A stretch of DNA of 64,000 nucleotides from Candidatus Levyibacteriota bacterium (lineage in GTDB: Bacteria > Patescibacteriota > Microgenomatia > Levybacterales > UBA12049), in assembly GCA_016186645.1 (NCBI GenBank), contig JACPLF010000003.1:4112-68111 (forward strand), given 5' to 3'. Made by a program: the position numbers and the translations under genes. The notes under the pieces were generated by a model. That model saw only the letters and a program-made list of their open reading frames with translations. It made no database searches and was not told where the DNA came from. Below, piece after piece: positions 401-40,839 of the stretch (its first letter is position 1; every line of letters starts with the position of its first letter).

Positions 401-1957
401 ATGAACATTACAAGCTATGAAGAGGCGATAAATTATCTGGAAGGATTTATTGGGAAAGTTGTTTTTAAAATCAACAAAGAGTTTTTGAAAAAGCGTGACC
501 CCTTGCAGAGGATGAGAATTCTGCTTTCACTTCTTGGAAATCCGCAGGAGAAGTTTAGATCAGTTTTGGTTGGGGGGACATCTGGAAAAGGGTCAACTGC
601 TTATTTAATTTCCCATATCCTAACAGTTGCTGGTTACAAAACAGGATTCACGGTTTCTCCGCATCTTCAGAAAGTTAATGAGAGGCTTCAGATAAATAAC
701 AAGTCAATTTCTAACGAGAACTTTTTAATATTGTTCAAAAGTATAATACTACCAAGTATTAGACAAATGTCAAAAATGGAAGTTGGCCCGCCGTCGTATT
801 TTGAAATTTTGGTTGCAATGGGGTTTAAACATTTTGCAGATCAAAAAGTGGATATTGCAGTTGCGGAGGTTGGGATGGGAGGAGAGTTTGACGCAACAAA
901 TACCTTAAATCCATTGATTGCAGTTCTTACAAATGTGGGATTGGATCACACCAATATTTTGGGAAAAACTGTTTCGAAAATCGCGCGAACCAAAGCTGGC
1001 ATAATTAAAACTGGCGCCACCCCTTTGGTAGTTGTGTCGGGGGTAAGGCAGCCGACGGTTATTAAGATTGTTGAAGATAGATGCAGAAAAGTGGGGGCAA
1101 AGCTCAATTTATTGTGGAGGAATTTTGGATATAAAATAAAAAAGATAAACCATGAAGGATCAGTTTTCGATTTAACAGTATCAAGCGGCCGCGGGCTACA
1201 GTTAAATGATTTGAGCTTGTCTTTTTTGGGAGATTATCAAGTTGAGAATGCGTCGCTGGCAATTAAAACAATTCTAGAACTTAGAGAATTAGGATTTTCC
1301 CACAACGCTCGCGCTTCGAGGGACAAGAAAATTTCAGACAGTGCAATTAGAAAAGCCTTAAAAACATCCTTTTTCCCGGGAAGATTCGAGGTGATTCATG
1401 TCGCTCAACAACCGCGCGTTTCAGATGACGCTCGGCAAACTGATTCAAATCCTTCTCCCAACTCGGCCTCGCTAAGTAAAAGTCGGCTCCAATCAAGAAC
1501 CCAGCCGACTTTTAGTTCATCTGAAAGCGGATTGTCTCGCTCCAACCATACGCTCATTTTAGATAGCGCGCATAATCCGACAAAAATGCGTGCGTTTTTG
1601 GCAACGCTTAAAAAACTTTATCCAAAAGAGAAAAAAGTTTTTCTTGTAGGATTTAAATTTGACAAAGACATACAAAAAATGCTCAAGCAAATTATAAAAG
1701 TTGCGGACGAAATTATCATCACAGAGTTTAATAGGGCAACAGATATGAATTTACACGCGTCTGCTGACGCAGAAAGTATTAAGTATCAAGTATTAAGTAT
1801 CAAGTATTCGGGAAAAATAATTGTTGAAAAGGATTCAAAAAAAGCACTGAAAATAGGAATTAAAACAATTCAACAATTTAACAATGAAACAATTTTAGTG
1901 GTTACGGGGTCTTTGTATTTGGTTGGTGAAATTAGAGGGTTATTGACAAAGTTTTAA
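401..1957 (+). CDS. folC: folylpolyglutamate synthase / dihydrofolate synthase (Mur ligase family)
   Basis: VGGTSGKGST P-loop and VGLDHTNILG motifs typical of FolC/Mur ligases. Carries GC-rich low-complexity inserts (1302-1322 and about 1420-1560). Confidence 0.85.
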   Translation: MNITSYEEAINYLEGFIGKVVFKINKEFLKKRDPLQRMRILLSLLGNPQEKFRSVLVGGTSGKGSTAYLISHILTVAGYKTGFTVSPHLQKVNERLQINNKSISNENFLILFKSIILPSIRQMSKMEVGPPSYFEILVAMGFKHFADQKVDIAVAEVGMGGEFDATNTLNPLIAVLTNVGLDHTNILGKTVSKIARTKAGIIKTGATPLVVVSGVRQPTVIKIVEDRCRKVGAKLNLLWRNFGYKIKKINHEGSVFDLTVSSGRGLQLNDLSLSFLGDYQVENASLAIKTILELRELGFSHNARASRDKKISDSAIRKALKTSFFPGRFEVIHVAQQPRVSDDARQTDSNPSPNSASLSKSRLQSRTQPTFSSSESGLSRSNHTLILDSAHNPTKMRAFLATLKKLYPKEKKVFLVGFKFDKDIQKMLKQIIKVADEIIITEFNRATDMNLHASADAESIKYQVLSIKYSGKIIVEKDSKKALKIGIKTIQQFNNETILVVTGSLYLVGEIRGLLTKF

Positions 1958-4125: not shown

Positions 4126-4701
4126 ATGATTTTGGGGCCGAAAGATTTATTAAAATTAGTCAAAACAAAAAAGCTCGTTGAGGGTTTGTCAGAAAGAGAA
4201 CTGACCAATCCTGAAGGAGCTGGGTTTGATTTGCGCTTGGGGGAAGTTTATTCAATTTCCGGCAACGCTTTTTTGGGCGAAACGCATCGGAAAACCGCGG
4301 ACATAAAATTAGTTGCACAATATAGACATATAAAAAAAATAAGCGATCGCATTAAAAAATCAGATATTAAGACCCAAAAAATTGAGATTAAGCCTGGAGA
4401 TTTTTTCCTGGTCAAGACAATCGAATCGGTAAATATGCCCCAAAATTTAACCGCGAGCATAACTCCAAGGTCTACAACTTACCGCTCGGGTTTGTTTCTT
4501 CGCACGGGAAATGTGCAGCCCGGTTACTGCGGGGGATTGATTTTTGGTTTGAAAAACGAAGGACCAATAACAGTCGAAATCGAAATGGGCGCGAGATTTG
4601 TCCACATCCAGTTTTCGCAAGTCAAAGGCGGGGGAAACATGTACCGCGGCCAATGGCAAGGCGGCCGAGTAACCGCGAGAAAAAAGGAAAAACAGGTTTA
4701 G
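4126..4701 (+). CDS. dCTP deaminase/dUTPase-family paralog
   Basis: MILGPKDL...GFDLRLGEVY N-terminus and C-terminal beta-jellyroll motifs (PGYCGGL). Contains an in-frame copy of the AGCGATCGCAT element at 4342-4352. Confidence 0.7.
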   Translation: MILGPKDLLKLVKTKKLVEGLSERELTNPEGAGFDLRLGEVYSISGNAFLGETHRKTADIKLVAQYRHIKKISDRIKKSDIKTQKIEIKPGDFFLVKTIESVNMPQNLTASITPRSTTYRSGLFLRTGNVQPGYCGGLIFGLKNEGPITVEIEMGARFVHIQFSQVKGGGNMYRGQWQGGRVTARKKEKQV

Positions 4702-9591: not shown

Positions 9592-9673
9592 GACTTTTAA
9601 TCCGGGCATTTAATCACCAATTTTTAGAATTCAAACTGCTCTCAAAAACAAATTTAGACATCTGATTATTTAC

Positions 9674-9684
9674 AGCGATCGCAT
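9674..9684. repeat. AGCGATCGCAT (HIP1-like 11-mer) copy; five identical copies in the window
   Basis: Copies at 4342-4352, 9674-9684, 23653-23663, 34208-34218 and 40775-40785. Each continues into similar A-rich ATCA(G/T)A context. Confidence 0.7.
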
Positions 9685-9713
9685 AAAAAAATCAGATAAC
9701 TAAATGTAAATTT

Positions 9714-9867
9714 ACCCCGTTACCCAATGTCCCATCCGTTAGGATGCGGGTTTCTAGTGGCGTGAAGCGAAAATTCAATAATGCCCGGACCCGCTTCGCC
9801 CAAGCTCCCGCCTAGACTCGGCGAGGCTGGTCAGCGAGGCGAGCCGTAAGGTCGTGGGTAACGGGGT
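9714..9867. repeat. 154-bp MITE-like element with 13-bp perfect terminal inverted repeats; the interior carries a 57-mer that is also present inside dnaX
   Basis: ACCCCGTTACCCA at 9714-9726 and TGGGTAACGGGGT at 9855-9867. Interior 9788-9844 matches 25870-25926 at 55 of 57 positions. Confidence 0.7.
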
Positions 9868-16041: not shown

Positions 16042-16709
16042 AAAAGGTTACCATAATTACAGTAGAAAATCAGCAAGAAGGCTTGGCTGCTGCAAAGTAT
16101 TTGCTATACAAAAAAGTTGACGATCAAACACTGCTTCTTCTCTCGGGGGGATCAACCCCAAAAGATTTGTACGAAACTATAGCGCAGGAAAAAAAGTTAA
16201 CGGCTAAAGCAGTTGGAATGGTTGATGAGAGGAAAGATAGAAGCAATTATAAAATGATAATGTCAACAGGATTATTGGATTATCTTAAGAATCTGAAAAT
16301 AAAATTTTACCCAATGATTTCTGCATCGTATTACGATAGGGACATACATAAACTTATAGGTTCATCTAAAAATAAAGCAGCTGTTATGGGTATTGGAGCA
16401 GATGGACACACAGCCGGCTTGCCAGCCGGAACTCAAATCTCAAATCTTAAATCTCAAAACTACGTAATAGATATAAATAATTTTCCTGGGGAGTTTAGAA
16501 AAAGAGTTACATTAACATTTAGAGCTCTTTTGAAAATGGATTTACTAATTGTCCTAGCTTTTGGCGAAAACAAAAAAGAGGCTTTGGAAAAAATGTTTGA
16601 CCCTTCGGCGGACTCAGGGCAAGAAGCGATTGAAGAAATTCCTGCAAGATTTTATCTTCGTCCCGATATTGCTCCTAAAACCCTTTTAATTACTGATCAG
16701 AAGATATAG
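16038..16709 (+). CDS. pgl: 6-phosphogluconolactonase
   Basis: GIGADGHTAGL motif of the NagB/DevB family. Confidence 0.7.
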   Translation: MKKVTIITVENQQEGLAAAKYLLYKKVDDQTLLLLSGGSTPKDLYETIAQEKKLTAKAVGMVDERKDRSNYKMIMSTGLLDYLKNLKIKFYPMISASYYDRDIHKLIGSSKNKAAVMGIGADGHTAGLPAGTQISNLKSQNYVIDINNFPGEFRKRVTLTFRALLKMDLLIVLAFGENKKEALEKMFDPSADSGQEAIEEIPARFYLRPDIAPKTLLITDQKI

Positions 16710-21762: not shown

Positions 21763-21809
21763 TTTTGATTAATTTGTCAAGGGGTGCAGTCTGCTGTATA
21801 CTTAAAAGC

Positions 21810-22091
21810 ATGAATCCCGTTAAAGATCGCTTTTATTATGTTTACATTTTACAAAGTTTGAAGAGCAACAAATGGTATACTGGCTACACAAATGAATTAC
21901 GCAAGCGTTTTAATCAACATCAAGAAAATAAATCTACATATACAAAAGGACGAGGACCTTTTAATCTTATATATTATGAAACATCGTTGAGAGAGGAGGA
22001 CGCTATAGCGAGAGAAAGATATCTTAAAAGCGGGATGGGCAAACGATATCTTAAAAATAGATTAAAACGCTCGCTATCTTTAACGGGATGA
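21810..22091 (+). CDS. GIY-YIG family nuclease (small, UPF0213-like)
   Basis: YYVYILQS...WYTGYTNELRKRFNQH. The TATACT -10 lies 7 nt before the ATG. Confidence 0.75.
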   Translation: MNPVKDRFYYVYILQSLKSNKWYTGYTNELRKRFNQHQENKSTYTKGRGPFNLIYYETSLREEDAIARERYLKSGMGKRYLKNRLKRSLSLTG

Positions 22092-23077
22092 AAATCGTTG
22101 TAACTCACAGTTCGCCGGACATGGATGCCATAACTTCTGTCTGGCTTATCAGAAAATTTTTACCAAATTGGAGCGATGCCCTAGTTAGGTTTGTACCAGC
22201 GGGAGAAAGGTTTACTTTTCGGAAAACTCAGAATGCTCAGAGCTCCAGCGTTTCTGACGGTCAGACTATCAGACAATCTGACTCTCCGAGTTCTTCAGAG
22301 TTTTCTGAAGTTGTCGAAAATATTGGCGAGGATGAAGTTATCCATGTTGATACTGGATTGGGACCTCTGGATCATCATCAGACTGCATCGGATGAAGTAT
22401 GCGGAGCAAGCCTGACGTTTGACTTCGTCAAACGAGTTCAAAATTCAAAATTCTCGCCTCGGGGCGAAGCGGGCAAAATTCAAAATTTGGAAAGCAAAAA
22501 GTGGAACGACAGAATGAAGGCAGTAGGGAGGATGGTGAAAGTTGTTGTTGATATAGATCATTTTAAGGAAGTTTTCCGCAAGGACCCTTTGGCTGACTAT
22601 CATGAATTTGACCTTGCAGGTATTTTGGATGGGCTCAAGCTCGAGCTTCCGGGTCAAGATGAATTATATGTTGCAGAAGTTAGCAAATCTTTGGATGCAA
22701 TTTTGCATGGGTTTGAAAATAGGATTTGGGCGGAAAAAGAAATCAGGGAAAAAGGGAAAAAATTTAAAACGCGCTTTGGCCGCGGAATTGGTTTAGAGAC
22801 AATAAATGATTCGGTTGTAAAATTGGCTCAAAAAATGGGATATGTAATTGCTGTGAGAAAAGATCCAAGAAAAGGGTACGTCCGAATAAAAGTGAGGCCG
22901 GATAGTAAAATTGATTTGACTTTAGTCTACGAGAAGTTTAGAAAAATCGACCCGGATGCCACGTGGTTTCTTCATGTTTCCAAAAAAATGCTTCTCAACG
23001 GTTCGGTAAAAAATCCCAAGATGAGGTCTACCAAGCTTTCTTTGAATGACATAATTAGAGTTCTAGAAAAGATATAA
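22088..23077 (+). CDS. DHH-family phosphoesterase (nanoRNase/NrnA-like)
   Basis: HSSPDMDAITS, DTGLGPLDHHQ. Overlaps the GIY-YIG stop. Carries in-frame repeat inserts at 22261-22300 and 22452-22469. Confidence 0.75.
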   Translation: MKIVVTHSSPDMDAITSVWLIRKFLPNWSDALVRFVPAGERFTFRKTQNAQSSSVSDGQTIRQSDSPSSSEFSEVVENIGEDEVIHVDTGLGPLDHHQTASDEVCGASLTFDFVKRVQNSKFSPRGEAGKIQNLESKKWNDRMKAVGRMVKVVVDIDHFKEVFRKDPLADYHEFDLAGILDGLKLELPGQDELYVAEVSKSLDAILHGFENRIWAEKEIREKGKKFKTRFGRGIGLETINDSVVKLAQKMGYVIAVRKDPRKGYVRIKVRPDSKIDLTLVYEKFRKIDPDATWFLHVSKKMLLNGSVKNPKMRSTKLSLNDIIRVLEKI

Positions 23078-23171: not shown

Positions 23172-23537
23172 ATGGAAAACTGTGTTTTTTGCAAAATCAG
23201 AGATAGAATTATCCCGAAAGAATTCACTTACGAAGATGAATCGGTGATGGTTTTTCCGGATATAAATCCAATTAAGCCTGTTCATCTTTTGATTGTTCCC
23301 AAAAAACATATAGAAGACTTTTTAATGATAAATGATCCCTACAACGCTCGCGCTTCGAGGGGCGAGGCAGGTAAATTATTAATTATGAAGTTAATAAAGA
23401 TAACTCAAAAAATGATAAAGAAGTTCGGATTAGAAAATAAGGGATACAGGGTTGGAATAAACGGCGGAGGAGCCCAAATCATAAACCATCTTCACTTCCA
23501 TCTCCTAGGCCCCATGGGTAAAGCTGCTGCGATGTAA
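23172..23537 (+). CDS. HIT-family (histidine triad) nucleotide hydrolase
   Basis: NHLHFHLLG histidine triad. Contains the 21-mer ACAACGCTCGCGCTTCGAGGG (23341-23361), identical to a stretch in folC. Confidence 0.85.
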   Translation: MENCVFCKIRDRIIPKEFTYEDESVMVFPDINPIKPVHLLIVPKKHIEDFLMINDPYNARASRGEAGKLLIMKLIKITQKMIKKFGLENKGYRVGINGGGAQIINHLHFHLLGPMGKAAAM

Positions 23538-23553
23538 GAAGTTCCCGCCTAAG

Positions 23554-23614
23554 CTTACCGTTCGAACACGTCAGACGTGTTTCATGGAGCGCTTTAGCGG
23601 CGGGCAAGTAGTTT
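23554..23614. repeat. family 2 palindromic element, copy b
   Basis: cccgcctaagctt...gcgctttagcggcggg with an inner aacacgtcagacgtgtt hairpin. Confidence 0.6.
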
Positions 23615-23767
23615 TTATTTGATTTCCGATCAAAAGATATATGACTACAATCAGCGATCGCATAGTAATATCATACATTATCTATGATCATAGCTGTAAC
23701 GCTTGAGTGGATTAAATGGGTATTTACTCTATTTTGGGTTTGGAGTAGAATAGAAAGTGGTAACGTG

Positions 23768-24704: not shown

Positions 24705-26291
24705 ATGGTTTTTTATCGAAAATATCGTCCGCAAAAAATAGAAGAGCTGGATAGTAAAGAAGTTAGGGACAAACTTCATAGTGTTTTGGGAAGCTCCTCT
24801 GTTTCTCATGCTTTTCTTTTTACAGGCCCCAAAGGTTTGGGAAAAACCTCAGCTGCAAGAATTGTCGCAAAAGTCCTAAACTGTGAAAAGGTGAGAAATG
24901 AGAAAGGAGAAATGAAAAATAAAGATAAAACTTCCCATCTCTCATCTCTCACTTCTCATTTCCGTGCGGTTGAGCCGTGCAATAAATGTGAACAATGCAT
25001 CTCGATTACACGCGGAACAAATCTAGACGTTTTGGAAATAGATGGTGCTTCAAATAGGGGAATAGATGAAATAAGAGATCTTAGGGAAAAAGTAAAACTT
25101 TCTCCAGCCGGGAGCCGCAAAAAAGTTTATATTATCGATGAAGTTCACATGTTAACCGCAGAAGCGTTTAATGCGCTTCTTAAAACTTTGGAAGAACCGC
25201 CAAGTCATGTTGTTTTTATTCTCTGCACAACAGAACCTCACAAAGTGCCAAGCACAATTCTGTCCCGTTGTTTACATATTCAATTTAGAAAAGCAACAGA
25301 GGCAGAACTGGTCAGATCGTTTGAAAGAATAATTAAAGCGGAAAAAATAAAAGCCGACAAAGAAGCCTTAGATTTAATCGCTAGTCTTTCAGACGGTAGC
25401 TTTAGAGACGGATCAAAACTTTTGGAAGAAATAGCTCTTTTGGCAGGACGTAAAAAAATTGCAAAAGAATTGATAGAAGAAAAATATTATGTATCAAGTA
25501 TTAAGTATCATATTAGAGCGATGGTGAAATGTTTGGATGCGAAAGACACAAAAGGAGGACTTGAACTTGTTTCAAAGCTGACAGAACAGGGCATTGACAT
25601 GAAGTTTTTTATTGAAGAATTAATACAGACTCTCCATAGTTTGTTACTTCAAAAAGTAGGGATTAAGAATGATCAAGAATTGGAAGTTCAAATTCTAGAC
25701 TTTGATATCAATGGAATCAAAAGACTGGTAGAATTATTTGCAAAAGCGCACAGCGAATTAAAATATGCGGTTTTGCCCCAGATTCCTTTGGAGCTGGTGA
25801 TTGTGGAATGGGGAATCCAGAAAACTCAGAATACTCAGCAATCCGGCAATTCTGATAATCAGACGATCAGACCCGCTTCACCGAAGCTCCCGCCTAGACT
25901 CGGCGAGGCTGGTCAGCGAGGCGAGCAATCTGATTCTCCGAGTATTCAGAAAATGGTGAAAGCACAAAAAAATGAAATACCGCTTAATGTTGCTCAGCAG
26001 AATATGATGGGGTACAGTGAGAATAATGCGTTGTGGGTCTCTTTGATAGATAGAGTGAAGGCTTACAATCATTCTATTGCCGGGGTATTGCGCGGATGCA
26101 GGATAAAAAGTTATGATGGTAAGAGTTTAATAATAGAAGCAAATTTCAAATTCCATAAAGATAAATTAGGGGAAATAAAAACACAACAGGTTTTGGAAGA
26201 AGCATGCAAAGAAATTACGAAGAAAAATGTTAAAGTAGAAGTGATGATGAAACCCGCCGTCGCTAAAGCTTTGGCGGGCGATGGGAGGTGA
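24705..26291 (+). CDS. dnaX: DNA polymerase III subunits gamma/tau
   Basis: MVFYRKYRPQKIEEL, GPKGLGKTS P-loop, a zinc module with CNKCEQC, and a box VII LSRC sensor. Carries nested GC-rich repeat inserts at 24930-24965 and 25857-25943. Confidence 0.9.
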   Translation: MVFYRKYRPQKIEELDSKEVRDKLHSVLGSSSVSHAFLFTGPKGLGKTSAARIVAKVLNCEKVRNEKGEMKNKDKTSHLSSLTSHFRAVEPCNKCEQCISITRGTNLDVLEIDGASNRGIDEIRDLREKVKLSPAGSRKKVYIIDEVHMLTAEAFNALLKTLEEPPSHVVFILCTTEPHKVPSTILSRCLHIQFRKATEAELVRSFERIIKAEKIKADKEALDLIASLSDGSFRDGSKLLEEIALLAGRKKIAKELIEEKYYVSSIKYHIRAMVKCLDAKDTKGGLELVSKLTEQGIDMKFFIEELIQTLHSLLLQKVGIKNDQELEVQILDFDINGIKRLVELFAKAHSELKYAVLPQIPLELVIVEWGIQKTQNTQQSGNSDNQTIRPASPKLPPRLGEAGQRGEQSDSPSIQKMVKAQKNEIPLNVAQQNMMGYSENNALWVSLIDRVKAYNHSIAGVLRGCRIKSYDGKSLIIEANFKFHKDKLGEIKTQQVLEEACKEITKKNVKVEVMMKPAVAKALAGDGR

Positions 26292-27628: not shown

Positions 27629-28237
27629 ATGAAAATACCTAAAGCCATACAAAGCCTAATTGAGTCTTTTGAGAAACTGCCGGGCATTGGGCAGAAAACT
27701 GCCCAGCGCCTCACTTTTTATCTATTGCATATTCCGCAAGGCGAGTTAGATAACTTTGCCAATTCAATCCAGAATCTTAAAAAAGGAACAATTATTTGTT
27801 CTATTTGTTTTTCAGTTGATGAGGCCGACCCATGCAGTATTTGTGAGAATCGAGAGCGTGATAAGTCTATTATTTGTGTTGTTGAAGAGCCGTTGGATGT
27901 TTTGGCGCTTGAGAAAAACGGTAAATACCATGGTGTATACCATGTTCTGCATGGGAAAATAGATCCGCTAAACAATATAGGTCCGGACGAAATTTATATA
28001 AAGCAATTATTGGATAGAATTATGAATCAAGAATCAGGAATTAAGGAGGTAATATTAGCTACAAACCCGACAATGGAAGGAGAGGCGACGGCAATGTACA
28101 TAGCAAAACAACTCAAATCTCAAATCTCAAATCTCAAAATTACGAGGATTGGGAGAGGGCTGCCAACAGGCGCGGATATTGAATACGCGGATGAGTTAAC
28201 TCTTCAACGAGCCATGGAAGGCAGGCAAAATTACTGA
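27629..28237 (+). CDS. recR: recombination protein RecR
   Basis: LPGIGQKTAQRL HhH, C4 zinc finger and Toprim. Confidence 0.9.
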   Translation: MKIPKAIQSLIESFEKLPGIGQKTAQRLTFYLLHIPQGELDNFANSIQNLKKGTIICSICFSVDEADPCSICENRERDKSIICVVEEPLDVLALEKNGKYHGVYHVLHGKIDPLNNIGPDEIYIKQLLDRIMNQESGIKEVILATNPTMEGEATAMYIAKQLKSQISNLKITRIGRGLPTGADIEYADELTLQRAMEGRQNY

Positions 28238-30561: not shown

Positions 30562-31950
30562 ATGTTAAAGATTTACAATACATTAACCCGGAAAGTGGAG
30601 GATTTTAAGCCTCTGAATCCGCCGGTTGTAAATATGTACACTTGCGGGCCCACAGTTTATGATTATCAGCATATTGGCCATATGCGGCGTTATGTTGGCG
30701 ATGACATTCTTGTCCGCACTTTGGACTTTAATAATTTCAAAGTAAAGCAGGTCATGAATATTACGGATGTCGGCCATTTGACATCGGATTCAGATACAGG
30801 AGAAGACAAAATGGAAAAGGGAGCGCGCAAATTTGGGATGAGTGTTTGGGATATCGCCAAAAAATTTGAAAAGCAATTTTTTGATTCCGCCCGCGCATTA
30901 AATATTAGGAAACCAGATATTTTGATGCATGCTACAGATTATATAAAGGAACAAATTGTTTTTATCCAGACTTTGGAAAAGAAGGGCTTCACTTACAAAA
31001 TTGATGATGGAGTATATTTTGACGCATCTAAGTTTCCGGATTACGGAATTCTGACAGGTCAGAGGTCGGAAGAGTTAAAAAAAGGAGCACGAGTAGAATT
31101 TGTTAAGGGTAAGAGAAATGTTACAGATTTTGCTCTTTGGAAGTTTTCTCCAAAAGGCGAAAAAAGACAAATGGAATGGGAGAGTCCGTTTGGCTTAGGT
31201 TTTCCGGGATGGCATATTGAATGTTCTACAATGGCAATAAAAGGCTTGGATACAGAGACTTTGGATATTCACACAGGCGGAATTGACCATATTGCAATTC
31301 ATCACACCAATGAAATTGCGCAATCAGAGGGAGCAACCGGCAGGCAATTCGTAAAATATTGGGTGCATCATAATTTTCTGCATGTTGATGGAGCGAAAAT
31401 GAGCAAGAGTATTGGTAATATTTTTACAGTTGAGGAAGTTGTCAGAAGGGGATTTGATCCATTGGCTTTAAGATATTTGTATTTGCAGACTCATTACAGG
31501 CAGGAAATGAATTTTACCTGGGATGCTTTGGAGGGAGCGCAAATTGCGTACAAAAGGTTGATTGATGAAGTTTCTAAGTTTAAAAATCCAAAAATCGGCT
31601 GCGCAGAATTTGAAGGGAAATTCTTGGACGCGATAAATGATGATTTGAATATGGCCAAAGCCTTATCTGTTGTTTGGGATTTGATCAAATCCGATTATCC
31701 GGATAGCGCCAAAGCAGAAAGCATTTTGAAAATGAATCAGGTTTTGGGTCTTGATTTGGAAAAAGCGAAAGAAAAGAAAAAGAAAATAAAAATCGTTGTT
31801 CCGCAAGAAGTGCAAATACTTATTGAAGAACGTAACAAGTTGAGAAAACAGGGGAGTTATACTCAGGCAGATCACATCCGCAACAAGATTAAAAAATTAG
31901 GTTTCAATATAAAGGATACAAAAAAGGGAGTGATAGTTGAGAAGATTTAG
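30562..31950 (+). CDS. cysS: cysteinyl-tRNA synthetase
   Basis: CGPTVYDYQHIGH HIGH motif and KMSKS. Confidence 0.95.
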   Translation: MLKIYNTLTRKVEDFKPLNPPVVNMYTCGPTVYDYQHIGHMRRYVGDDILVRTLDFNNFKVKQVMNITDVGHLTSDSDTGEDKMEKGARKFGMSVWDIAKKFEKQFFDSARALNIRKPDILMHATDYIKEQIVFIQTLEKKGFTYKIDDGVYFDASKFPDYGILTGQRSEELKKGARVEFVKGKRNVTDFALWKFSPKGEKRQMEWESPFGLGFPGWHIECSTMAIKGLDTETLDIHTGGIDHIAIHHTNEIAQSEGATGRQFVKYWVHHNFLHVDGAKMSKSIGNIFTVEEVVRRGFDPLALRYLYLQTHYRQEMNFTWDALEGAQIAYKRLIDEVSKFKNPKIGCAEFEGKFLDAINDDLNMAKALSVVWDLIKSDYPDSAKAESILKMNQVLGLDLEKAKEKKKKIKIVVPQEVQILIEERNKLRKQGSYTQADHIRNKIKKLGFNIKDTKKGVIVEKI

Positions 31951-32930
31951 TTTTTTGTTTTTAGAAATTCTAATGTTTCCTTCGCATTTTGAAACTTCAT
32001 AAGTTCTGTTCTCACATTACTTGCGTTTGGCATGCTCGCCTCGCTGAAGCTTTGGCGAAGCGGGCCGGAGATGTAGATTTTGTAGAACTTTTTCATAATG
32101 GAGAAGTTTTTAGTTTTGCCCCAAGTTTTGTCAAAAAGCGTAATGTGCGTAATTAATAATTTTAATTTTTCTTGATAAGAAATGCTTGCTGGGTTTATGG
32201 ATTTATTATAAATCCAAAGGTTGTCAAAAATTCCCCGTCCTATCATAATTCCATCAACTTTATATCTCTTGTATTTTTCCATTGCATCGTCAAGACTTTT
32301 TACATCGCCATTTCCGATAATTAGGGTTTTGACTTTCATAGCATCTCTCAATTTAACAACTTTTCCGATTTCATCCCAGTGGGCCGGAACATCTGACATT
32401 TCCGCAGCTGTCCGGCCATGAATTATAAGGCAATCAAGATTTAATCCCAGCAAAAATCTTGCCCATTTTTCTGTTTGAATATTTTTAATTCCGATTCTGG
32501 TTTTAACGCTTACAGGGAGACCACTGGCGCCCTCCCGTGTTGCCAAAATAATTTCTTTGGCAAGTGCATGGTTGTTTATTAAAGCAGCACATGAGCCTTT
32601 TTTTACAACTGATTTTTCCGGACACCCCATGTTGATGTCAATCCCATCAAAACCTCTGAGTCTTATTAATTTTGCAGTTTCAAAATAATTTTTGGGATTG
32701 TTTCCCCAAATCTGCGCAACAATCGGGTGTTCAATATCTGTAAATTTTAATCTTTTCCCAACTTTGTCCCGGCCTTTTGAACACATGCCTTCGACATTTG
32801 TGAACTCTGTAAAAAAGACATCGGGTTTTCCACATCTTGCAATTATTTGTCGGAAAACCGTATCAGTCACATCTTCCATTGGGGCCTGAATCAAAATCGG
32901 TTTTTTAAGACTAGTCCAAAAGTTCTTCAT
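31947..32930 (-). CDS. dus: tRNA-dihydrouridine synthase
   Basis: APMEDVTD..., INMGCPEKSVVKKGSCAAL motif. Confidence 0.85.
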   Translation of the reverse strand: MKNFWTSLKKPILIQAPMEDVTDTVFRQIIARCGKPDVFFTEFTNVEGMCSKGRDKVGKRLKFTDIEHPIVAQIWGNNPKNYFETAKLIRLRGFDGIDINMGCPEKSVVKKGSCAALINNHALAKEIILATREGASGLPVSVKTRIGIKNIQTEKWARFLLGLNLDCLIIHGRTAAEMSDVPAHWDEIGKVVKLRDAMKVKTLIIGNGDVKSLDDAMEKYKRYKVDGIMIGRGIFDNLWIYNKSINPASISYQEKLKLLITHITLFDKTWGKTKNFSIMKKFYKIYISGPLRQSFSEASMPNASNVRTELMKFQNAKETLEFLKTKN

Positions 32931-34046: not shown

Positions 34047-34244
34047 ATTAAATATTATATTTATTCTAAGTTTAAACTGCAATCATAAGAAAAAATAAAA
34101 ATTGCACATAAAAAAATAAGAGTTTTATACTTTTTCAGCGCGCAAGTAATACCTGCAAAGTGTTTATTAAAAGCACCAAAGACAAAATTAGGTATATAAC
34201 TACTTAAAGCGATCGCATCAAATTATTATATACGTAAATGTTAG

Positions 34245-40221: not shown

Positions 40222-40766
40222 AAGTCATAATGGTTGCGGTCTCCTCAATAAATGGCAAAATTACAAGAGGTTTGGATCCCAATATTTACTCCTGGACTTC
40301 CAAGGAAGACACGAAGTTCTTCTTCTCTTTAATAAAAAAACACAGTCTTATCGTAATGGGCTCAAAGACTTACGAAACAGTAAGAAAAGTTATTAAACAC
40401 GAAAAGGATAAATTAAGAATAGTTCTAACAAGAGAACCTAAAAAATATTCAGAAGAGGCAAAAAAGGGAATGTTGGAATTTACCAATGAAAATCCCTCAA
40501 AACTTATAAAAAAAATGGAAAGCAGGGGATATAAAAAATTGTTAATTGTTGGCGGTGGAACGATTAATACTTTATTTTTAAAATCAAAACTTGTGAATGA
40601 AATATATTTAACCTTCGAACCAAAAATCTTCGGCTCAGGAAAAAATTTAATAAAAGAAGAAAACCTTGATATTACATTAAAATTAATTAGCGCCAAAAAA
40701 CTCAATCGCCAGGGCACTACGCTTTTGAAATACAGAGTGAGTAAAATGAAAGGCTATGACATATGA
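40218..40766 (+). CDS. dihydrofolate-reductase-like (RibD C-terminal domain) protein
   Basis: MKVIMVAVSSINGKI...LIVMGSKTYE...LLIVGGGTINT. 4-nt overlap with yhhQ. Confidence 0.7.
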   Translation: MKVIMVAVSSINGKITRGLDPNIYSWTSKEDTKFFFSLIKKHSLIVMGSKTYETVRKVIKHEKDKLRIVLTREPKKYSEEAKKGMLEFTNENPSKLIKKMESRGYKKLLIVGGGTINTLFLKSKLVNEIYLTFEPKIFGSGKNLIKEENLDITLKLISAKKLNRQGTTLLKYRVSKMKGYDI

Positions 40767-40839
40767 TTATTTTAAGCGATCGCATGATAAAATCATACAT
40801 CAGAAATGTTAGATGTGACATAATTAGCTTTATTAATTT

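Follow-up and report, generated by a model that had tools for sequence, protein, structure and literature searches.

A hairpin-forming DNA cassette of 30 nucleotides, present in folC and in a HIT-family gene of a Candidatus Levyibacteriota bacterium, recurs across CPR bacteria

In this work we show that an identical 21-mer carried by two unrelated genes of a Candidatus Levyibacteriota bacterium, folC and a HIT-family hydrolase gene, is the core of two copies of one hairpin-forming DNA cassette of 30 nt. The window, that is, the whole 64,000-nt stretch of DNA that was analysed, contains ACAACGCTCGCGCTTCGAGGG exactly twice, at positions 1302–1322 (folC) and 23341–23361 (HIT), both on the plus strand; no further match with up to three mismatches was found in these 64 kb, and none of 100 dinucleotide-preserving shuffles matched the 21-mer. 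As noted in the preliminary description, both copies are in frame. The two genes also translate the repeat in one and the same phase, as H-N-A-R-A-S-R in folC and Y-N-A-R-A-S-R in HIT. The flanks, described there as unrelated, are so only beyond the few 5' bases that are still similar (TCCCAC in folC, CCCTAC in HIT), and 24 of the 26 hairpin positions are identical in the two genes. The features of the two loci are as follows.

401–1957, plus strand: folC, folylpolyglutamate/dihydrofolate synthase, 518 amino acids (Pfam Mur_ligase_M and Mur_ligase_C)
1298–1327, plus strand: 30-nt unit in folC, with left arm TCCCAC (1298–1303), loop AACGCTCGCGCTTC (1304–1317), right arm GAGGGA (1318–1323) and tail CAAG (1324–1327)
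23172–23537, plus strand: HIT-family hydrolase gene, 121 amino acids (Pfam HIT)
23337–23362, plus strand: hairpin part of the unit in the HIT gene, CCCTAC / AACGCTCGCGCTTC / GAGGGG, spanning codons P56 to R63 plus the first two positions of codon G64
23361–23372, plus strand: second GC-rich module, GGCGAGGCAGGT, fused to the HIT hairpin in place of the usual CAAG tail

Both segments are insertions relative to the corresponding protein families. The folC unit encodes residues 300–309 of FolC, SHNARASRDK, past the Mur_ligase_M domain, which ends at residue 288; this 10-residue segment is missing in 117 of 120 FolC relatives, and a gap is also seen against the solved structure 1o5z. Similarly, 97 of 120 HIT relatives are without any insert at the codon boundary of the HIT insert, and the insert faces a gap in PDB entries 5uvm and 6d6j. 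The shared segment is therefore not a motif conserved in the orthologues of both proteins, the finding that would have spoken against the proposed insertion. The proteins themselves are 100% identical to a Candidatus Levybacteria MAG protein (FolC) and to a Levybacteria MAG protein (HIT). Covariance model R1 scores the HIT hairpin at 31.3 bits and the folC unit at 36.5 bits, the latter sequence being itself part of the R1 training set. As regards a possible single ancestral insertion in FolC, a crude, star-like neighbour-joining tree places the window protein and P0122 as sisters and P0140 elsewhere.

The HIT insert is composite. The hairpin and GGCGAGGCAGGT together form a 36-nt, 12-residue insert at 23337–23372 (PYNARASRGEAG), and the second module does resemble, as had been remarked, an insert in a DHH-family gene of the window (22454–22474). 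In one relative (L129), the 3' end of the HIT insert is the same GGCGAGGCAGGT module followed by the same 3' flank (GGCGAGGCAAGT AAATTATTAAT), two other relatives (L130 and L131) carry related modules at the same HIT site, and at least six different inserts occupy it among close relatives. These occupants suggest that the site is a hot spot at which GC-rich modules may have merged with or replaced one another. A low-confidence AF2 model of the HIT protein (pLDDT 60) places the insert in a coil ahead of a long helix.

The canonical unit reads CCCCAC-TTCGCTAAAGCTTC-GAGGGG-CAAG, i.e. a 6-bp stem, a 14-nt loop and a 4-nt tail. In the main family the stem is GC-rich with one conserved A.A mismatch and the loop sequence is nearly fixed. 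Among the matches listed, the consensus ends are C-CCCAC at the 5' side and GAGGG-G-CAAG at the 3' side, with a tail consensus Y-A-R-R; information content drops to zero directly outside the 30 nt, and no target-site motif was found in the flanks of the 118 listed copies, where it is about zero. The closing base pair, which lay outside the search pattern, is Watson-Crick in 104 of the 112 unique copies listed against 51 expected, with all four pair types present. In alignment A3, 82% of cells are paired, compared with 36–48% when the partner is slid, and the covariation score of this alignment, which tallies sequences rather than independent events, was reached by none of 500 shuffles. Copies recovered via the loop alone have complementary stems where these were free to vary (CCCTCC/GGAGGG, CCCGCC/GGCGGG, TCCTCC/GGAGGA). 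The minimum free energy of the hairpin, about -3 kcal/mol, is no better than that of shuffles, so that the structure is argued from covariation alone. A larger flanking palindrome was considered as a general part of the unit and discarded, as it is present only in subsets, for example the Uhrbacteria-type CCCTCTCCCG...CCGGAGAGGG, often followed by a T-run. In Rfam 15 the whole window has no match at gathering thresholds, and no match at E<=1 overlaps the units.

A search of related genomes, as the preliminary description had proposed, found the module in unrelated genes and in intergenic DNA. A degenerate pattern with 19 fixed bases matched at least 119 stretches of genome contigs in at least about 92 species-level assemblies, where about 4 matches were expected by chance, and nearly all of these stretches are from CPR/Patescibacteria, the hosts including Levybacteria, Uhrbacteria, Peribacteria, Berkelbacteria and Saccharibacteria. 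Among the matches listed, the five free positions are exactly canonical in 59 of 122 copies; in the four matches that come from non-CPR genomes of high GC content they deviate from the canonical sequence, as chance matches would be expected to do. Strict copies number 1–8 per assembly among the matches listed, per-genome numbers being unreliable, and they are solitary: the closest pairs within one listed locus are 828 nt to 6 kb apart, and no dimer was found among the listed matches except one adjacent inverted pair (L057). Of the 122 listed copies, 56 lie in ORFs of at least 150 codons, the others including intergenic sites. In long ORFs the unit is read as PTSLKLRG (20 copies), HFAKASR (21), PRSFSEVG (9) or LEALAKW (2), which are four stop-free frames, and in-frame copies are known in FolC, HIT, DnaX, a 6-phosphogluconolactonase-like gene and class I aminoacyl-tRNA synthetases. 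The hairpin nature of the module, its exact length of 30 nt, its CPR-wide occurrence and the fact that the window version is a lineage-specific loop variant all go beyond what had been described for this DNA.

Several further sites in the window are related to this family.

26253–26282, plus strand: sister-family unit at the C-terminus of dnaX, CCCGCC / GTCGCTAAAGCTTT / GGCGGG / CGAT, encoding ...PAVAKALAGD...
32034–32066, minus strand: degenerate sister copy inside the minus-strand ORF 31947–32930, with translation ...PLRQSFSEAS..., the unit being read on the other strand
22454–22474, plus strand: GC-rich 21-nt insert (SPRGEAG) in the DHH-family gene, with CAAAATT repeats on both sides
16433–16434, plus strand: empty site in a 6-phosphogluconolactonase-like gene, where the orthologue of a relative has a 30-nt unit (L002:1500–1529)

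The dnaX unit, in which all 6 bp of the stem are perfectly paired and the loop is close to the canonical one, scores 30.9 bits with R1 and is a 10-residue insertion relative to the DnaX protein of relative L002. The degenerate copy at 32034–32066 has borderline R1 scores, 14–16 bits on both strands, and the DHH insert (GC 0.81) is a 7-residue insertion relative to the L002 orthologue. In the 6-phosphogluconolactonase-like gene, the 10-residue gap detected by tblastn corresponds, in alignment A2, to a clean 30-nt DNA gap at which the flank is not duplicated. The window holds two strict copies, or three to four at the level of the superfamily, in 64 kb, while 41 kb of a relative hold five superfamily copies. 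The addition of residues in frame to unrelated enzymes is thus supported; the mobility that had been attributed to the GC-rich module is what we infer from its distribution and from its presence or absence at given sites.

The window copies carry a loop variant, AACGCTCGCGCTTC, that differs from the canonical TTCGCTAAAGCTTC by five changes clustered within 13 nt between identical arms. This variant occurs in folC, in HIT and on four further contigs of metagenome Ga0213870, one of these sites (L126) being orthologous to a canonical copy in L010, and in a relative (JGI1358J11329_10000063) folC and HIT both contain the loop in its canonical form. The presence of the variant at sites that are canonical in relatives suggests that copies were overwritten from one another or replaced; counting against conversion between copies, this would need identity arms of only 6 nt and about 10–14 nt.

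The cassette is an insertion with sharp boundaries and co-varying base pairs, read in four frames, with a filled and an empty version of one site and a CPR-wide distribution. We consider that it is probably a new type of interspersed hairpin element, very small and similar to REPs. According to this proposal, the cassette would insert as an exact unit and without target-site duplication into intergenic DNA, AT-rich heptamer tracts and protein genes, and genic copies would persist where a stop-free frame adds about ten tolerated residues to a loop or linker. The most likely mechanism would be recognition of the folded single-stranded hairpin by a trans-acting enzyme via the conserved loop and tail, with a candidate reaction resembling that of REP/RAYT or the 'peel and paste' of IS200/IS605, or else a cassette exchange. 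In keeping with exact insertion, units interrupt heptamer arrays precisely: direct 8-mers are common to both flanks in 14 of the 118 copies listed, against 1.1 expected. The biased orientation of the units, given below, also speaks for this proposal. Several observations weigh against this interpretation, namely the low copy number, the weak thermodynamics of the hairpin, the lack of terminal inverted repeats, of a GTAG/CGTC tag and, among the listed matches, of dimers, and the lack of a recurrent transposase at 115 loci. Indeed, none of the 1,362 clustered ORFs from these loci revealed a recurrent mobility gene or transposase near the units, a clustering that covered the loci only and that a single-copy RAYT elsewhere in the genomes would escape; the recurrent neighbour families were housekeeping only (class I aminoacyl-tRNA synthetases, GroEL, a translational GTPase). 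A small GIY-YIG nuclease gene beside the DHH gene was examined as a possible partner and dropped, such a gene being present at only 5 of the 119 loci listed. Carriage by phages or plasmids was likewise rejected, as IMG/VR gave no match and phage and plasmid collections only chance-level partial matches. More tentatively, we put forward that the units may form an undescribed class of cassettes kept CPR-wide by a conserved candidate trans-acting machinery, which might both insert them precisely and overwrite them with the current loop of the lineage, amounting to a sequence-specific cassette-exchange or homing process at dozens of sites, including essential genes.

Purely selfish DNA does not usually show such strong conservation of a loop in different phyla, which could point to a host function. 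The unit would then be a host-selected cis-element, either a site in DNA or a hairpin in RNA, recognised through its conserved loop by a conserved CPR protein, genic copies being tolerated or co-opted, with roles such as organising the chromosome, processing or stabilising RNA, or initiating translation. This reading, which we regard as rather unlikely, accounts for the strong conservation of free loop positions over at least about 92 species-level assemblies together with a co-varying stem, and for the low copy number. It also fits the orientation bias, as among the matches listed the CCCCAC strand is the G-rich strand at 76 of 102 loci and the sense strand in 44 of 56 long ORFs. Moreover, several intergenic copies end 6–25 nt upstream of a start codon (e.g. 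L126, L010 and L035), where GAGGGG could act as a Shine-Dalgarno sequence. However, positions differ between relatives, as seen from the filled/empty site and from the patchy distribution on the FolC tree, crude and star-like as it is; the unit arrives as a 30-nt insertion instead of having evolved in place, its copies use four reading frames and both strands, and it matches no Rfam family. We know of no cognate protein for the loop.

A second possibility, which appears distinctly unlikely to us, is that no dedicated machinery exists and that the units are side products of replication or of repair (switching of templates, or the short-patch double illegitimate recombination known as SPDIR), GC-rich patches from the same genome or from taken-up DNA being copied into AT-rich, slippage-prone sites. 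Five clustered loop changes between identical arms are the signature of a templated patch, inserts do lie in heptamer tracts, and different modules merge at the HIT site. SPDIR is reported to integrate ectopic single strands at microhomologies during replication (10.1101/2023.11.22.568220); writing such a short ectopic patch could explain the 5-change loop replacement. Its products vary in size and sequence, which leaves fixed boundaries unexplained, whereas the 118 listed copies of the cassette all have equally sharp limits at 30 nt and a closing pair that co-varies, which argues for a defined unit rather than for random patch ends.

It is very improbable that the unit is a DNA uptake sequence biasing natural transformation towards like DNA, as DUS/USS do in Neisseria and Haemophilus. 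Competence genes are present in CPR bacteria, and biased uptake together with recombination could account for the lineage-specific 'dialects' of orthologous sites; however, DUS/USS occur at a density of roughly one per kb, far above that of the unit in the window, and the unit enters as an insertion, not by point mutation. If selection had acted on the two proteins to favour one short peptide, H/Y-N-A-R-A-S-R-G/D, this would account for the same frame being used in both window copies and in all six variant copies seen elsewhere, but the several frames in use effectively refute this idea: four of them serve to translate the canonical unit, which is also intergenic. In addition, most orthologues lack the segment, and the two window copies are identical at every synonymous position. 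Finally, nothing was found in favour of a match by chance or of an artefact of assembly or contamination, an explanation that is refuted by the shuffles, by the occurrence of the unit in independent assemblies from many studies and platforms, by its diverged in-frame variants and lineage restriction, and by its absence from phage, plasmid and viral collections.

In-frame repeats in housekeeping genes were already known from Rickettsia and from some REP families; what distinguishes the cassette is that it is far smaller (exactly ten codons), that a conserved loop, not a conserved stem, defines it, that it is common to distant candidate phyla, and that its loop is switched lineage-wide at orthologous sites. 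If an enzyme reads the loop, minimal-genome bacteria would possess a DNA (or RNA) transaction that is both new and broadly conserved, and that could also serve as a compact tool for precise insertion. The cassettes inflate and diversify CPR protein sequences, and the recurrent peptides that they create, such as PHFAKASRGK, PTSLKLRGAS and PRSFSEVG, can mislead homology searches and gene calling; the cassettes also offer a marker with which recombination between uncultured lineages can be traced. Our literature searches (sequence, peptides, CPR and repeats) returned no description of the unit and none linking RAYT with CPR.

Among known systems, MITEs have terminal inverted repeats, a target-site duplication and a size of roughly 100–400 bp, whereas the unit has 30 nt, no terminal inverted repeats and no duplication at the filled/empty site. 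CRISPR repeats form regular direct-repeat arrays with spacers; copies of the unit, in contrast, are solitary, and no significant Rfam CRISPR-DR match overlaps it. The Rickettsia RPEs (Ogata et al. 2000) are the classic precedent of 'selfish DNA in protein-coding genes', found both as in-frame inserts in conserved protein genes and in intergenic DNA, as the unit is. According to a review (PMC2229807) they are long stem-loops of 105–146 bp with 12-bp terminal inverted repeats and occur in Rickettsia only; the unit differs from them by its 30 nt, its single 6-bp stem and its spread over a whole radiation of phyla. The palindromic GC clusters of yeast mitochondria (e.g. GC42), for which 'merger and shuffling' and exchange by homologous recombination were described (Wu and Hao 2015, PMC4478555), resemble the unit in several respects: they too are short GC-rich hairpins scattered sporadically in an AT-rich genome, and their merging and exchange have a counterpart in the composite HIT insert and in the unit's patchy distribution. 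However, the target site of GC42 is AG, and GC42 varies chiefly in its loops, its stems being constrained (PMC4478555), whereas in the unit the loop is constrained, the stem co-varies and no target motif was found in the flanks of the listed copies; in addition, the two come from separate domains of life and are not similar in sequence. REPs are imperfect palindromes that reach high copy numbers, are mostly extragenic, often form dimers or clusters and are associated with a RAYT, an HUH tyrosine transposase of the IS200/IS605 type. They are stem-loops of 20–40 bp, most with stems of 6–9 bp, with short tails and a conserved terminal tetranucleotide GTAG/CGTC (PMC3733652). The unit differs from them in having no GTAG/CGTC tag on either strand, its end being CAAG (CTTG on the other strand), in its loop, which is long and the most conserved part, and in the A.A mismatch of its stem. 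It also differs by its low copy number without dimers or clusters among the listed matches, apart from the inverted pair in L057, by the location of about half of its copies in long ORFs, in that no recurrent transposase-like gene such as a RAYT was found near the 115 loci, and by its CPR hosts, a group not listed in that survey. Nevertheless, with a 26-nt hairpin and a 4-nt tail it is a short stem-loop within the REP size range, and some REP families have loops of 9–15 nt, occur in evolutionarily distant organisms or lie inside genes (Di Nocera et al. 2013, PMC3733652). In two Xanthomonas species, recB carries different REPs at about the same site (PMC3733652), a situation that parallels the HIT hot spot of the unit.

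The 21-mer ACAACGCTCGCGCTTCGAGGG occurs exactly twice in the window, and the whole window holds no further site at up to three mismatches; none of 100 dinucleotide-preserving shuffles of the window contained a match. The two copies lie as follows.

1302-1322, + strand: copy 1, in ORF 401-1957, FolC with Mur-ligase M and C domains
23341-23361, + strand: copy 2, in ORF 23172-23537, HIT-family hydrolase

The frame is the same in both genes (HNARASR in FolC, YNARASR in HIT), so that the identical in-frame 21-mer of the preliminary description is borne out. The window FolC and HIT proteins are each 100% identical to a protein of a Candidatus Levybacteria MAG, and the host, whose GC content is about 38%, is therefore a CPR/Patescibacteria bacterium.

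When the 120 best FolC relatives are aligned with MAFFT, SHNARASRDK is absent from 117, the segment being found solely in the window protein and in two relatives, P0122 (SHFAKASRDK) and P0140 (SHFAEASRDK). It lies beyond the end of the Mur_ligase_M domain (residue 288), at a position where the solved FolC structure 1o5z has a gap when aligned. For HIT, 97 of 120 relatives run from ...MMND straight into LMMKL... with no insert, the remaining 22 and the window protein have 7-16 additional residues exactly at this boundary, and structures 5uvm and 6d6j have a gap there when aligned; a low-confidence AF2 model (pLDDT 60) would place the insert in the coil preceding a long helix. By the relatives and solved structures, the 21-mer therefore does not encode a motif conserved in the orthologues of both proteins, in support of the earlier proposal that a GC-rich module added residues in frame to unrelated enzymes. 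This proposal can be extended. The syntenic relative JGI1358J11329_10000063 (loci L001 and L002), with FolC and HIT 65% and 74% identical to those of the window, has inserts at the same two positions, whose core, CCCACTTCGCTAAAGCTTCGAGGG, is identical in its folC and HIT genes. Across 20 orthologous gene pairs, window and relative differ by 22 internal indels of at least four residues, mostly GC-rich, and in-frame modules are therefore a general trait of the window genome. FolC has a second, low-complexity insertion of 42 residues at 1406-1531 (QQPRVSDDARQTDSNPSPNSASLSKSRLQSRTQPTFSSSESG; GC 0.50), which the relative's FolC lacks; in other FolC relatives a different module, of 7 residues (ACLPAGR or ACLPTGM), is found a few residues upstream of where the unit sits.

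The pattern CCCACNNCGCTNNNGCTTCGAGGG, which has 19 fixed bases, was run against a single genome for each GTDB species; at least 119 stretches were found where about 4 chance matches are expected, and the listed ones come from at least 96 assemblies, counted by accession prefix. Four assemblies among the matches listed (Actinomyces, Streptomyces, Afipia and one 68%-GC MAG) have high GC and are not CPR; their free positions are non-canonical, which fits chance matches. The other listed matches bear the names Levy-, Curtiss-, Roizman-, Woese-, Gottesman-, Blackburn-, Uhr-, Kaiser-, Zambryski-, Vogel-, Lipton-, Berkel-, Peri- and Saccharibacteria or 'Patescibacteria group', and they include TPA bins with the label Gammaproteobacteria. 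This label looks wrong for at least one bin (contig L070), because its FolC, P0140 (57% identical to the window's), surfaced among Levybacteria-dominated FolC matches. Two contigs that are not CPR-like, L057 (CADEFU010000008.1, 65% GC, labelled Alphaproteobacteria) and L024 (labelled Deltaproteobacteria), carry exact canonical units, adjoined in L057 by an inverted sister copy (CCGCC..TACGCTAAAGCTACG..GCGG); they may reflect a superfamily reaching beyond CPR, or mis-binned contigs. The unit was not found in 2.9 million viral contigs, phage and plasmid collections gave only partial matches at chance level, and Rfam has no family matching it.

The unit has fixed boundaries and a selected hairpin. 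It reads C-CCCAC-TTCGCTAAAGCTTC-GAGGG-G-CAAG, 30 nt or ten codons, and information content is high from one base 5' of CCCAC through the CAAG after GAGGG and zero outside this span. Among the matches listed, the five free pattern positions are exactly TT and AAA in 59 of 122 copies, and the closing pair (the bases just 5' of CCCAC and just 3' of GAGGG, both outside the search pattern) is Watson-Crick in 104 of 112 unique copies against 51 expected (C-G 67, T-A 21, A-T 12, G-C 4); the next pair outward shows no complementarity. A loop-only search, with stems left free, recovered sister families whose stems are perfectly complementary yet different (CCCTCC/GGAGGG, CCCGCC/GGCGGG, TCCTCC/GGAGGA, TCCCCC/GGGGGA). 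In an alignment of 131 sequences, 82% of the 6-bp stem cells are paired versus 36-48% with the partner slid, and no shuffle of 500 reached the covariation score, which counts sequences and not independent events; at the fifth stem pair the main family has a conserved A.A mismatch, the sister families C-G. As main-family stem positions are mostly fixed by the search pattern, the non-circular evidence for the hairpin is the closing pair and the free loop positions of the stem-anchored search, together with the free stems of the loop-anchored one. At about -3 kcal/mol, the predicted free energy is no better than that of shuffles. A subfamily of Uhrbacteria-type MAGs (L007, L025, L027, L039, L065, L079, L088, L113, L115, L119), with the loop TTCGCTCGGGCTTC and at least 6 to 9 copies per assembly, lies within a larger palindrome, CCCTCTCCCG ... 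CCGGAGAGGGAG, often followed by a T-run; the whole resembles an intrinsic terminator whose loop is the unit.

Insertion is precise, without detectable target duplication. The relative's 6-phosphogluconolactonase-like gene contains CCCCACTTCGCCAAGGCTTCGCGGGGCGAG (IPHFAKASRG), the window orthologue has an empty site at 16433/16434, and the two differ by exactly 30 nt, with no duplicated flank. In three loci of other CPR genomes (L032, L102, L112) the unit splits an AT-rich heptamer array, which is restored on removal of 30 nt. Neither terminal inverted repeats nor a target motif of the unit was found; an 8-mer is common to both flanks in direct orientation in 14 of 118 copies (1.1 expected) and in inverted orientation in 12 (1.7 expected), among the matches listed. 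The peptides predicted in ORFs of at least 150 codons (PTSLKLRG 20, HFAKASR 21, PRSFSEVG 9, LEALAKW 2, among the matches listed) are stop-free frames of both strands, and of the 122 listed copies 38 are intergenic or in short ORFs; a peptide motif selected at the protein level is therefore excluded. Among the matches listed, 44 of 56 long ORFs hold the unit in the sense orientation, and at 76 of 102 loci the strand reading CCCCAC is the G-rich one (p = 7e-7); as sources of this bias, transcription, replication and peptide tolerance are not separable in these data.

Units also turn over at occupied sites. The window loop is AACGCTCGCGCTTC versus the canonical TTCGCTAAAGCTTC, with the same five changes in folC and HIT, and stem, tail and insertion junctions match those of the relative's canonical copies. 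Four contigs of metagenome Ga0213870 have the exact 21-mer as well, in other genes; for one of these sites, at a gene junction (L126), the orthologous site in Levybacteria (L010) holds a canonical copy. Among HIT relatives, the closest (79-85% identity) show variant or near-variant forms (PHNARASRGK, PHNAFASRGR), and more distant ones PHFAKASRGK. About 85 kb of variant-lineage DNA holds six variant and no strict canonical copies; the relative's 41 kb holds no variant, two strict canonical and one near-canonical copies. Parallel point mutation cannot have produced the same five changes at three or more separate sites, and copies must therefore have been overwritten from one another or replaced by re-insertion. 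A crude, star-like FolC NJ tree places the window and P0122 as sisters and P0140 elsewhere, which would need loss, re-gain or recombination. Directly downstream of the HIT stop codon, GC-rich 23537-23600, without an Rfam match, is 85% identical over 61 nt to L123:3936-3996, on a Ga0213870 contig that also carries a variant unit.

The HIT site is an insertion hot spot, as close relatives have several different inserts at the same codon boundary.

PHFAKASRGKE, PHNARASRGKE, PHNAFASRGRE: canonical, variant and near-variant forms
PPGGEASK: CCGCCTGGCGGCGAGGCAAGT
EGPASPQGG: includes the reverse complement of GGCGAGGCAGG
EGLPAGEAG: GGCCTGCCTGCCGGCGAGGCAGG
Longer inserts: also present

The window insert (23337-23372, 36 nt) is composite, the variant hairpin being fused to GGCGAGGCAGGT, and this 3' module and its flank are common to locus L129, in agreement with the suggestion that the HIT copy runs on into a module resembling the DHH insert. 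The DHH insert itself (22454-22474) is absent from the orthologue and located between CAAAATT repeats. Other repeats in the window are the following.

1773-1816 and 25481-25510; 16430-16464 and 28110-28144; 22437-22453 and 22475-22489: heptamer-type AT-rich tandem tracts
4324-4369, 9656-9701, 23635-23680, 34190-34235, 40757-40802: AT-rich repeat, about 46 nt, palindromic around GCGATCGC
9788-9844 and 25870-25926: GC-rich 57-nt repeat, two copies, 96% identical
22222-22274 and 25820-25872: 53-nt repeat, 79% identity, DHH-family gene and dnaX

The heptamer-type tracts (AAGTATT, AAATCTC, CAAAATT) are found within coding sequences, and unrelated genes have them in common. Part of one 46-nt copy (4324-4359) is a 12-residue in-frame insert (RHIKKISDRIKK) in ORF 4126-4698, absent from the L001 orthologue. 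One 57-nt copy is in DNA where no ORF reaches 50 aa; the second lies in frame within dnaX (…RPASPKLPPRLGEAGQRGEQ…) and overlaps an insertion of 15 residues (25857-25901) that the DnaX of the relative lacks. The 53-nt copies, in frame in both genes (KTQNAQSS..DGQTIRQ and KTQNTQQS..DNQTIRP), lie just upstream of further GC-rich modules.

These properties suggest a model in which a trans-acting factor would recognise the folded single strand via loop and tail and would insert or exchange the cassette, intragenic copies surviving presumably only at places that tolerate about ten, mostly hydrophilic, residues; the nearest known chemistry would be REP/RAYT or IS200/IS605 single-strand transposition. 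No candidate mobilising enzyme was found among 1,362 clustered ORFs from 115 loci, where recurrent families are housekeeping alone (e.g. class I aminoacyl-tRNA synthetases, GroEL). GIY-YIG nuclease genes are not generally associated with the unit; in the window a small, stand-alone ORF resembling a GIY-YIG nuclease (21765-22091) lies directly upstream of the DHH gene, and the relative has two such ORFs near folC. A host-selected cis-element would agree with the conservation of the loop and with GAGGGG ahead of some start codons, but the unit behaves as an insertion and its positions are not conserved. A repair by-product such as SPDIR accounts for patch-like conversion but leaves the fixed boundaries unexplained. 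A DNA uptake sequence would need a far higher density, and an artefact is excluded.

In conclusion, the unit is a real variant of the REP-like or RPE-like kind, previously undescribed in the literature searched (including by literal sequence and peptides), and unusual for its exact ten-codon size, its loop conserved across phyla and its concerted loop switching. Its architecture is closest to REPs, which have stems mostly of 6-9 bp, a terminal tetranucleotide and short tails, in some families 9-15-nt loops, and of which intragenic copies exist, the same recB site being occupied by different REPs (PMC3733652); it is not filed as a REP because the defining GTAG/CGTC tag, dimers and high copy number are absent. 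Rickettsia RPEs likewise insert in frame into conserved enzymes (PMC2229807), but the unit is three to five times shorter, has no terminal inverted repeats and is not limited to one genus. Yeast mitochondrial GC clusters are also GC-rich hairpins that merge and shuffle in an AT-rich genome; however, their loops vary and their stems are constrained, the opposite of the unit (PMC4478555).
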